From Candidatus Nezhaarchaeales archaeon (lineage in GTDB: Archaea > Thermoproteota > Methanomethylicia > Nezhaarchaeales > WYZ-LMO8): a DNA stretch of 64,000 bases. This document shows, one piece after another, positions 1 through 935 of this stretch. A model generated the notes under the pieces. That model ran no database searches. It had not been told where the DNA came from and saw only the letters and a program-made list of their open reading frames with translations. Every line of letters begins with the position of its first letter. Within the stretch, counting starts at the first letter, position 1. The position numbers and the translations under genes were made by a program. The stretch lies in assembly GCA_038887515.1 (NCBI GenBank), contig JAWAKK010000003.1, forward strand, positions 11,482 through 75,481, given 5' to 3'.

Positions 1-935
1 CAACGTCAAATTTTTCTAAAGCATCGTAGTGCTCGAAGTCCTTCCTAAGTCTAAGTTTGGACATCGGTATAACGCCTATACCCCTCCAATCACCATCGCA
101 AGGCTCAAATACCTCCAACATAATCCTCTTCGCTTTAACGTTGCCCTCTTTCTTAACGCTTCTTGTATACTCTATCTCAACGTCGCACCTGCCCTCTTTT
201 ATCTGTTCGAGTATCATGGCTAAAGAGGCCAAGACGTCCAATGGCTCAAAGCCGCTTATAACCATAGGCTTCCCATATCTTTTTGCTATAGGCTCATAAG
301 GCTCTGAGCCTATAATCGTCGATACGTGGCCAGGACATATGAAGCCTCCTATAGCTAGATCGGGCCTCTTGAGTAGATGTTCCATGGCTGGTGGTATGAG
401 CCTATGACTTACTATTAAGCTAAAGTTTTCAGGGACACCTTTAATTAGCTCTATAGCTGTCGTGGGAGCTGTAGTCTCAAAACCTATGGCAAAGTGTACA
501 ACTTCAACGTCAAGCTTCTTGGCTAAGTCTATTGAATCCGATATGCTGTAGACTATCCTGATGTCAGCCCCCTTAGCCTTAGCCTTCATAAGTGACATGC
601 CCCCAACAGCGGGTACTCTGAACATGTCACCATAGGTTGTAAGTACTACTTTTTTAGAAATGGCAAGGTTTATGGCAGCTTGTATCTCAGTTACGCTAGT
701 GACGCAGACCGGACACCCTGGACCCGCTCTAACCTCAAGTCCTCTAGGTAGTAGGCTTCTTAGCCCAAATCTCGATATGGTCCATTCATGGTTCGGCCGG
801 GGACTAGCCCCGTGTACCGCATACATGCATTATTATCAAGCGATCTAGGGCTAGCTCCTTAAAGAGTTCGTGTAGACGCTTTGAAAGAGCCTTTGCGACC
901 TTCTCGTCTCGAAAGGGCTCAGTTACCACACTCAT
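1..935 (-). CDS. hypD: Hydrogenase maturation factor HypD; 3' end outside the window; exon 1 = 935..814, exon 2 = 791..<1
   Basis: Manual translation: MSVVTEPFRDEKVAK...IIMHVCGT|HEWTISRFGLRSLLP...GPGCPVC...YGDMFRVP...GFETTAP...CPGHVS...GFEPLD...WRGIG. These are the hallmark HypD motifs. The frame is continuous only after removing 792..813. Confidence 0.95.
792..813 (-). other. Putative BHB (EndA-type) intron in hypD mRNA, 22 nt
   Basis: mRNA reads CAUGUAUG-CGGU-AC^A-CGGGG-CUAGU-CCCCG-GCCG-AA^C-CAUGAAUG: a 4-bp central helix, two 3-nt bulges, and inner and outer helices. The unspliced frame hits UAG. Confidence 0.85.

Follow-up and report, generated by a model that had tools for sequence, protein, structure and literature searches.

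Can a gene whose reading frame is broken by a few extra nucleotides still give a whole protein, and if so, by what means? The question is raised by hypD, the gene of a [NiFe]-hydrogenase maturation protein, which lies at the start of a 64,000-nucleotide (nt) stretch of DNA from a Candidatus Nezhaarchaeales archaeon (assembly GCA_038887515.1, contig JAWAKK010000003.1), hereafter the window. The window corresponds to C3:11482-75481 of the genome of a hot-spring archaeon (G000; 1.29 Mb, 9 contigs, 94% complete). On the minus strand the gene reads M-H-V-C-G-T, runs into a 22-nt insert (813..792) and resumes in a different frame with H-E-W-T-I. We propose, at a probability of about 0.9 and on the strength of sequence comparisons, that this insert is a genuine archaeal bulge-helix-bulge (BHB) intron within the hypD coding sequence, spliced by the tRNA-splicing endonuclease EndA and the ligase RtcB, and we infer that cleavage and ligation of the hypD mRNA actually occur.

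The interrupted hypD gene and its predicted fold

Translated without splicing from the ATG at 935, hypD passes through ATG CAT GTA TGC GGT ACA CGG GGC TAG (M-H-V-C-G-T-R-G-stop), leaving an upstream open reading frame (ORF) of 43 aa (935..804). A second frame (826..2) reads ...NHEWTISRFG...GPGCPVC and matches the Pfam HypD profile from position 29 onwards (E 1.8e-104). Taking out 813..792 joins the two as GGT AC/C CAT GAA (G-T-H-E; here and below a slash within a sequence marks the splice junction), in frame, and gives an ORF of 371 aa with the same spacing as the M-H-V-C-G-T-H-E-W of intronless relatives. HypD proteins are known by the motifs GPGCPVC and, near the N-terminus, C-G-x-H. The former lies within exon 2, and C-G-T-H arises only once the 22 nt are removed; exon 2 aligns with the HypD structure PDB 2z1d from residue 41, directly past the conserved Cys-Gly-Thr. 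The parts of the gene are as follows:

814..935, minus strand: hypD exon 1, with ATG at 935-933, 40 full codons (M...IIMHVCG) and the AC of the Thr codon.
792..813, minus strand: putative hypD BHB intron, 22 nt, ACGGGGCUAGUCCCCGGCCGAA, with an in-frame UAG at 806-804.
1..791, minus strand: hypD exon 2, opening with the third base of the Thr codon, after which it reads HEWTISRFG...GPGCPVC; it extends 200 nt past the window start, to G000:C3:11282.
783..827, minus strand: complete hBHBh' motif, from the minimum-free-energy fold, the RNAalifold consensus and pair counts.

The outer helix of this motif (827-820 with 790-783) pairs at 7 of 8 positions, with one G.A mismatch and one U.G, and four contiguous pairs adjoin the bulge. 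The central helix joins CGGU (819-816) to GCCG (797-794) by 4 bp, and the 3-nt bulges ACA (815-813) and AAC (793-791) lie on opposite strands, each 3' of its central-helix strand. The inner helix pairs CGGGG (812-808) with CCCCG (802-798), 5 bp in all, and closes on a loop, CUAGU (807-803), that includes the UAG. The minimum-free-energy fold computed by ViennaRNA for 835..775 is exactly this BHB. When the intron of the window was shuffled, BHB geometry was reached in 21 of 20000 trials, and for the 16 sites treated in this way the number was at most 33 of 20000 per site. No Rfam family was found within window positions 600-1000 at E <= 1. The original prediction, made from the letters of the window, had described the interrupted frame with its 43-aa unspliced product, the canonical BHB elements at 827..783, and a cut behind the second base of each bulge that removes 813..792 and restores G-T-H-E. 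The sequence and the ORF 935..804 bear out the first of these, the ViennaRNA structure is identical to the second, and the 371-aa ORF agrees with the third.

Same-site inserts in relatives and the rival explanations

We compared hypD among relatives: 38 distinct sequences, which come from Nezhaarchaeales, Culexarchaeia relatives and metagenome-assembled genomes (MAGs) labelled Bathyarchaeia, carry an insert of 20-37 nt at this codon. A HypD match was present in 54 of 61 related genomes. Eleven of these matches begin at profile position 28-29 and two contain a stop, and each of these 13 hypD copies carries a 20-28-nt insert at the codon in question. The copies come from all nine hypD-bearing genomes of the window's own family (f1; its member G002, 69% complete, gave no HypD match), two genomes of family f7 (G029 and G031, the latter Ca. 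Culexmicrobium), one of f8 (G027) and one of f4 (G025, in one of its two hypD copies). The close relatives of the window genome are Ca. Nezhaarchaeota/Nezhaarchaeales MAGs. By comparison, 30 loci (L002-L031, including four from f3) are contiguous at the site, and the remaining HypD matches of f5, the family that holds Ca. Methanosuratincola (genus g10), span the profile from position 3-5 without a stop. The second hypD of G025 (L045, G025:C11:1725-3768) is divergent and intronless, sits on a 5.9-kb contig and clusters with the copy of G033 (L044), the branches being very long. It is a paralogue or else a contaminant introduced by binning.

The sampling extends beyond these genomes. Among 80 hypD loci on genome contigs, 12 have the insert, nine of them duplicating known genomes and three adding Bathyarchaeia-labelled MAGs not sampled before, whose insert is 33 nt long. 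When metagenome contigs were scanned with a degenerate pattern, 38 stretches matched; GPGCP follows downstream in 37 of them, and 22 distinct sequences among them, with inserts of 22-37 nt, were new. The pattern requires at least 22 nt, and the 20-21-nt introns of G004, G009 and G003 are absent from our table of 35 sites. A phylum-wide HypD search gave a match in 268 of 401 genomes, and among the matches listed (150 of 277) the intron signature appeared only in already known genomes. Of the 35 distinct tabulated inserts, 22 cause a frameshift, and an in-frame stop is present in every one of the remaining 13, the length of which is divisible by three. Spliced ORFs are complete in 16 of 16 genome-derived copies (364-388 aa). 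An assembly or sequencing artefact has in its favour that the window comes from a draft assembly of 9 contigs, and nothing beyond; 13 further genome assemblies have inserts of the same class, as do 38 stretches of metagenome sequence drawn from many records, and the probability of such an error is negligible.

The lengths of these inserts also bear on the idea that translation begins at the internal ATG at 826-824 and yields a truncated HypD reading through the insert (MYAVHGASPRPNHEWT...). The open frame 826..2 does contain that ATG, but it is open only because the insert of the window is 22 nt long, and relatives with 20, 21, 23, 25, 26, 28 or 33 nt do not share the frame. The product would moreover be without the conserved Cys of CG-x-H and the conserved 40-residue exon 1. 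We therefore regard an internal start as highly improbable.

If the insert is a BHB intron, its helices should be visible in the alignment as well as in a single fold. With splice sites set by the reading frame alone, the central helix is paired at 4 of 4 positions at all 16 genome-derived sites, and in the metagenome matches it is paired at 4 of 4 in 36 of 38 and at 3 of 4 in the other two. At 13 of the 16 sites the inner helix runs without interruption for 4-8 bp and closes on a loop of 2-6 nt; in the three Bathyarchaeia-type introns, 2 bp are followed by an A.C mismatch, beyond which a longer stem forms. RNAalifold, given a MAFFT alignment of the 16 sequences, predicts the BHB without guidance. 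Paired cells make up 93.0%, whereas column shuffles give 82.9% and none of 500 reaches the real value; with the partners slid by 1-3 columns the share is 29.5-35.4%. The covariation score is 0.366 compared with 0.183 in shuffles, none of 500 of which reach it, and compensatory changes occur at five of the five inner-helix pairs (for example CGGGG with CCCCG, CGAGG with CCUCG and CAGCC with GGCUG). Covarying stems in an alignment of hypD among relatives had been put forward in the original prediction as a check, and this check comes out in favour of the intron.

Because the exon strands of the helices are codons, the BHB structure is maintained via synonymous sites, and the alignments indicate that the synonymous sites of the hypD exons are constrained to pair. 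In the Gly codon, the third base has a G as its partner in the central helix; this base is a pyrimidine (C or U) at 34 of 35 intron-bearing sites and at 21 of 66 intronless sites (Fisher p 2.7e-11). The third bases of the Val and His codons can pair at 13 of 16 intron-bearing compared with 17 of 66 intronless sites (Fisher p 6.8e-5), and those of the His and Glu codons at 16 of 16 compared with 53 of 66 (Fisher p 0.06); related sequences are not independent, so that all three p-values overstate the significance.

These observations speak to two further explanations. One is that a small insertion has turned hypD into a pseudogene, now in decay, in a cell that no longer matures its [NiFe]-hydrogenases. 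The unspliced gene does stop after 43 codons, and standard gene callers would flag a frameshift, but both halves are open and conserved in 16 of 16 genomes. Exon 1 is kept as protein in those genomes, and third-position changes dominate in it (325/210/659 differences within the family at codon positions 1/2/3). The insert, despite lengths of 20-37 nt, sits at exactly one codon and has a stem that covaries, and decay would not preserve the complementarity of exon synonymous sites. In addition, the genome retains hypC and HypF, and three of its loci yield a total of four matches to [NiFe]-hydrogenase large subunits. An intact second hypD, to which the original prediction had pointed as a possible sign of decay, is not found in the window genome, since the genome-wide profile search gave one HypD match (profile 29-350 of 351). 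A pseudogene is thus hardly credible.

The other explanation leaves the insert in the mRNA and has the ribosome skip it by translational bypassing or programmed frameshifting, for which gene 60 of phage T4 provides the precedent. A stable hairpin with a stop right behind the Gly-Thr codon pair, and a short gap, would suit this mechanism. Bypassing nevertheless requires matching take-off and landing codons, and in hypD the Thr codon is itself split (AC/N), while the three bases ahead of exon 2 vary among AAC, AGT, ACT, ATC, ACA, ATA, AAA and AAG. Modulo 3, the insert lengths take every possible value. What is conserved is the BHB register, with its 3-nt bulges and a 4-bp helix made partly of exon bases, and this register would serve no purpose in bypassing. 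We consider ribosomal skipping very unlikely.

Against a BHB intron in hypD can be set, first, that its fold energy is unexceptional (z = -0.42; 60 of 200 shuffles are equally stable) and that a scan of the genome gave 7208 canonical BHB-like hits compared with 7341 for a mirror-geometry control. Because BHB-like geometry is this common by chance, the case for hypD rests on frame restoration, conservation and covariation, and chance is excluded because the geometry recurs at one codon among relatives, not because of fold energy. Second, the motif is not perfect everywhere: the G.A mismatch of the outer helix is invariant, an A.C mismatch at inner-helix position I3 marks the Bathyarchaeia-type introns in 15 of the 35 tabulated sites (I3 is unpaired in 16 of 35 overall), and one 28-nt metagenome intron type has an extra unpaired A, so that some hypD copies are relaxed BHBs. 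Third, three hot-spring metatranscriptomes of the same study have 0 reads on window positions 1-4000, which is no test either way. For a cultivated relative, gene expression is reported in a paper on the cultivation of Methanonezhaarchaeia (PMC12700198).

The window genome encodes the enzymes that such an intron would need. RtcB is present (E 5.2e-181), and there are two genes for EndA; in Crenarchaeota, an EndA encoded by two genes is of the heterotetrameric type. Aragorn finds introns in 18 of the 46 tRNA genes of the genome, three of which lie in the window:

52183..52719, minus strand: EndA gene (tRNA-splicing endonuclease), 178 aa, tRNA_int_endo_N and tRNA_int_endo domains.
G000:C1:132427-133002: second EndA gene, 191 aa, tRNA_int_endo_N and tRNA_int_endo domains.
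6423-6534 (G000:C3 17904-18015): intron-bearing tRNA-Ser (aragorn).
48032-48121 (G000:C3 59513-59602): intron-bearing tRNA-Ser (aragorn).
48569-48698 (G000:C3 60050-60179): intron-bearing tRNA-Tyr with a 55-nt intron (aragorn).

In the mechanism that we propose, the hypD pre-mRNA would fold so that the exon codons H-V-C-G and H-E-W, together with intron bases, form a helix, a bulge, a 4-bp helix, a second bulge and a further helix. EndA, encoded by two genes and presumably heterotetrameric, would cut behind the second base of each bulge, and RtcB would ligate the exons. The spliced mRNA would then give a normal 371-aa HypD with CG-T-HE, and unspliced mRNA would terminate translation after 43 codons. 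Geometry, reading frame, conservation, synonymous constraint, the single gene copy and the presence of EndA and RtcB together support, as far as sequence can, the central claim of the original prediction, namely a tRNA-type intron in a hydrogenase maturation gene.

To trace the history of this intron, we placed 94 HypD proteins in a quick maximum-likelihood tree (excluding nine bacterial loci, rows of <330 or >460 aa and identical rows). Intron-bearing hypD genes form three strongly supported clades: the Nezhaarchaeales family, with the intron in 9 of 9; a clade of f4, f7 and f8, with the intron in 4 of 8 and with intronless G023 beside intron-bearing G029 of the same genus; and the Bathyarchaeia trio. 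The tree requires a minimum of 3-4 state changes. Introns are alike inside each clade, and across clades have only the exon-complementary 3' end in common. This pattern fits an old hypD intron that was precisely lost several times, a history also described for cbf5; alternatively, the intron may have been gained more than once, independently, at a single favoured site. Taken together, the hypD intron is most likely a constitutive and evolutionarily old passenger, with an early gain and several precise losses.

Further mini-introns in the window genome

The original prediction had also suggested that other apparently broken genes hide similar introns, and this was borne out by nine more in eight genes. 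At least nine further BHB mini-introns (16-32 nt) lie in eight other genes of the window genome, among them those of cbf5, the translation initiation factors aIF2-gamma and aIF5B, ribosomal protein uS5, an IF-2B-family protein, pyrG and purA:

G000:C2:333915-333935 (L129 1547-1567), plus strand: cbf5 intron, 21 nt, in-frame UAA, GHGGTL/DPRVTG.
G000:C2:24144-24175 (L131 331-362), plus strand: aIF2-gamma intron, 32 nt, DCPGHE/MLMATML; GTP_EFTU 4-80 before and 85-187 after it.
G000:C2:21722-21750 (L136 136-164), plus strand: aIF5B intron, 29 nt; GTP_EFTU 4-31 before and 61-183 after it.
G000:C1:3238-3267 (L132 433-462), minus strand: uS5 intron, 30 nt, VQRQTD/AGESSRF; exon 2 from profile position 17.
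G000:C1:10133-10162 (L133 563-592), minus strand: intron of the IF-2B-family gene (MtnA/aIF2B-like), 30 nt, THC/NAG; IF-2B 2-114 before and 117-279 after it.
G000:C2:221611-221630 (L135 712-731), plus strand: pyrG intron 1, 20 nt; exon 1 is profile 1-40.
G000:C2:221664-221695 (L135 765-796), plus strand: pyrG intron 2, 32 nt; exon 3 from profile position 54.
G000:C2:215924-215940 (L203 1325-1341), minus strand: purA intron, 17 nt, GDEG/KGK; Pfam abutment not applicable.

Apart from purA, Pfam coordinates abut across the inserts. The genes of aIF2-gamma and aIF5B are neighbours with one mini-intron each. In pyrG (CTP synthase) a 33-nt micro-exon separates the two introns, both of which come after identical exon bases, ACCC AU/A (Pro-Tyr codons); this shared context hints at duplication or a preferred insertion site. 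In all ten introns, that of hypD included, the first intron base is A and the 3' bulge begins with A (NN/A and AN/N), reflecting either a preference of the enzyme or shared descent.

We examined the conservation of these introns in 30 relatives and found the inserts conserved, with compensatory changes. The aIF2-gamma intron is present in 10 of 10 genomes of the family, with 13 others contiguous, and both pyrG introns occur in the same proportion (strict BHB in nine and eight, respectively) and are absent from the contiguous others examined. The IF-2B-family intron is found in all nine family genomes that have the gene. The purA intron occurs in seven of the motif-readable family genomes and in G000; with a length of 16-17 nt in the family, it would be among the smallest BHB introns. 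Other introns reach further. The cbf5 intron was seen in 21 of the 30 relatives (20 strict, one relaxed), from six families of the class, as inserts of 19-29 nt whose H helix is CCCU with GGGG. The aIF5B intron is present in all of f1, f2 and f3 and in five f5 genomes, including two complete Methanosuratincola. For uS5, the intron occurs in 10 of 10 f1 and 4 of 4 f3 genomes (13 strict BHB, one relaxed), with 15 contiguous; row L193 was scored by the regular expression as having an insert, and its sequence reads contiguous. The uS5 central helix covaries between exon and intron (ACGG with CCGU, ACAG with CUGU), a synonymous change of the exon Thr codon from ACG to ACA being matched by a change from CCGU to CUGU in the intron.

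In total, one 1.29-Mb genome would hold at least ten introns of 16-32 nt in nine conserved genes, and some are shared beyond Nezhaarchaeales, that of aIF5B with Methanosuratincola and that of hypD with Culexarchaeia relatives and Bathyarchaeia. We think it probable, with somewhat less confidence than for hypD itself, that Nezhaarchaeales and part of their Thermoproteota neighbours run a whole population of coding-gene mini-introns spliced by EndA and RtcB. It looks like a general intron load that the cell splices constitutively. With its siblings located in housekeeping genes of this genome, the hypD intron does not resemble a hydrogenase-specific switch, and a dedicated role in regulating hydrogenase maturation is improbable. 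A special tie between hydrogenase assembly and EndA/RtcB activity, as the original prediction had envisaged, is possible and not favoured, given that introns of this kind also interrupt genes for translation factors, a ribosomal protein and nucleotide synthesis.

The genome-wide scan for BHB motifs that had been suggested along with the prediction was informative in part. In the strictest tier, 6 of 11 canonical hits fuse ORFs as against 1 of 11 mirror hits, and five of the six are real by homology. The loose tiers stayed at the level of the control (ORF-fusing hits, canonical compared with mirror: 515 and 562, 1274 and 1355, 24 and 32), and a codon-usage score applied genome-wide failed to separate canonical from mirror-geometry hits. 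With the loose tiers no better than chance, it is homology checks that support the further introns listed, and others have surely been missed. Several hits were rejected: a strict-tier hit in uL3 (G000:C2:129387-129418) sits in an intact 341-codon frame, the supposed intron of a CBS-domain gene (C2:250269-250289) encodes a typical CBS motif, the frame at the start of tmcA (C3:14741-14758) is contiguous, and a hit at proteasome beta (C3:27267-27282) was set aside as more likely a gene start. A further hit lies in an Orc1/Cdc6-like gene (C2:321610-321632).

Known systems, consequences and the surroundings of hypD

The closest precedent is the BHB intron in the cbf5 pre-mRNA of Crenarchaeota, which Watanabe is said to have described in 2002. 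The accessible part of a 2020 article states cbf5 to be the only archaeal coding-sequence BHB intron and adds one case in a 5' untranslated region (5'-UTR), HVO_1309 of Haloferax volcanii, which is an EndA substrate in vivo and in vitro (PMC7714728). The portion available of Yokobori 2009 places the cbf5 intron only in Desulfurococcales and Sulfolobales, gives the cleavage rule as between the second and third bulge residue, and links the heterotetrameric type of EndA to cbf5 pre-mRNA splicing (PMC2738675). As far as these excerpts go, the cbf5 and hypD introns are alike in being short coding-sequence BHBs cut between the second and third bulge residues, in their gain and loss among relatives, and in their association with a hetero-oligomeric EndA. 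They differ in that the hypD intron has a hydrogenase maturation protein as host and splits a codon of the catalytic motif, that its motif is a strict hBHBh', most cbf5 introns being classed there as unconventional BHBs, and that it occurs in Nezhaarchaeales, Culexarchaeia relatives and Bathyarchaeia rather than in Desulfurococcales or Sulfolobales. The Haloferax intron, as presented in the text at hand, is likewise an mRNA BHB, but it lies in an untranslated region and interrupts no reading frame. These two, cbf5 and the Haloferax 5'-UTR, were the only precedents for mRNA BHB introns that we found in the literature, part of which was available as excerpts. We found no report of a BHB intron in hypD, nor of introns in Nezhaarchaeota, Culexarchaeia or Methanosuratincola, in a search that covered neither subscription-only papers nor supplements.

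Archaeal tRNA and rRNA introns share with the hypD intron the motif, the cleavage rule and the enzymes, and those in the tRNA genes of the window genome are of comparable size; in hypD, by contrast, the exon strands of the helices are codons. In the splicing of XBP1 and HAC1 by IRE1 and RtcB, too, a protein endonuclease cuts out an intron that is small and structured, RtcB-type ligation joins the ends, and the reading frame of the product changes as a result. XBP1/HAC1 is named as spliceosome-independent splicing in the part of PMC13149111 that was accessible. IRE1 differs in recognising stem-loops and in being stress-regulated, and no homology to the hypD intron is implied.

A second coding-gene case, strictly canonical and widely conserved, would end the sole status that cbf5 has held for more than 20 years, and it would do so in the catalytic Cys-Gly-x-His region of an essential hydrogenase-maturation protein. 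The multiplicity of mini-introns in one lineage is a more surprising result than the hypD intron itself. If these introns are what they appear to be, the tRNA-splicing machinery serves mRNAs more generally, tRNA-type splicing of mRNA is far commoner in archaea than the single textbook case suggests, and in part of the archaea it is a routine and ancient layer of gene expression, on which translation initiation factors, a ribosomal protein and nucleotide-synthesis enzymes would depend through EndA and RtcB. Exon synonymous sites would be visibly shaped by RNA structure, and the lineage would offer a tractable system for studying the gain and precise loss of protein-spliced introns. There may also be practical consequences: intron-bearing genes mis-called as pseudogenes or split ORFs would be a systematic blind spot of gene callers, distorting both metabolic predictions ('no HypD, hence no working hydrogenase') and marker-based completeness estimates for uncultured Thermoproteota.

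Three features lie immediately upstream of hypD:

957..973, minus strand: A/T-rich box, GGTTAAGTTAATTTTTA, ~30 nt upstream of the hypD ATG.
994-1551, plus strand: metallophosphoesterase gene (Pfam Metallophos_2, 9.2e-23), separating hypC from hypD.
1546..1779, minus strand: hypC, upstream of hypD on the same strand (Pfam HupF_HypC, 5e-28).

The A/T-rich box is likely an archaeal promoter of the TATA/BRE type, which would imply a near-leaderless hypD mRNA. Near-identical boxes stand at equal distance in other hypD loci of the window's family. In Methanomethylicaceae, unlike in the window with its intervening metallophosphoesterase gene, hypC directly adjoins hypD.

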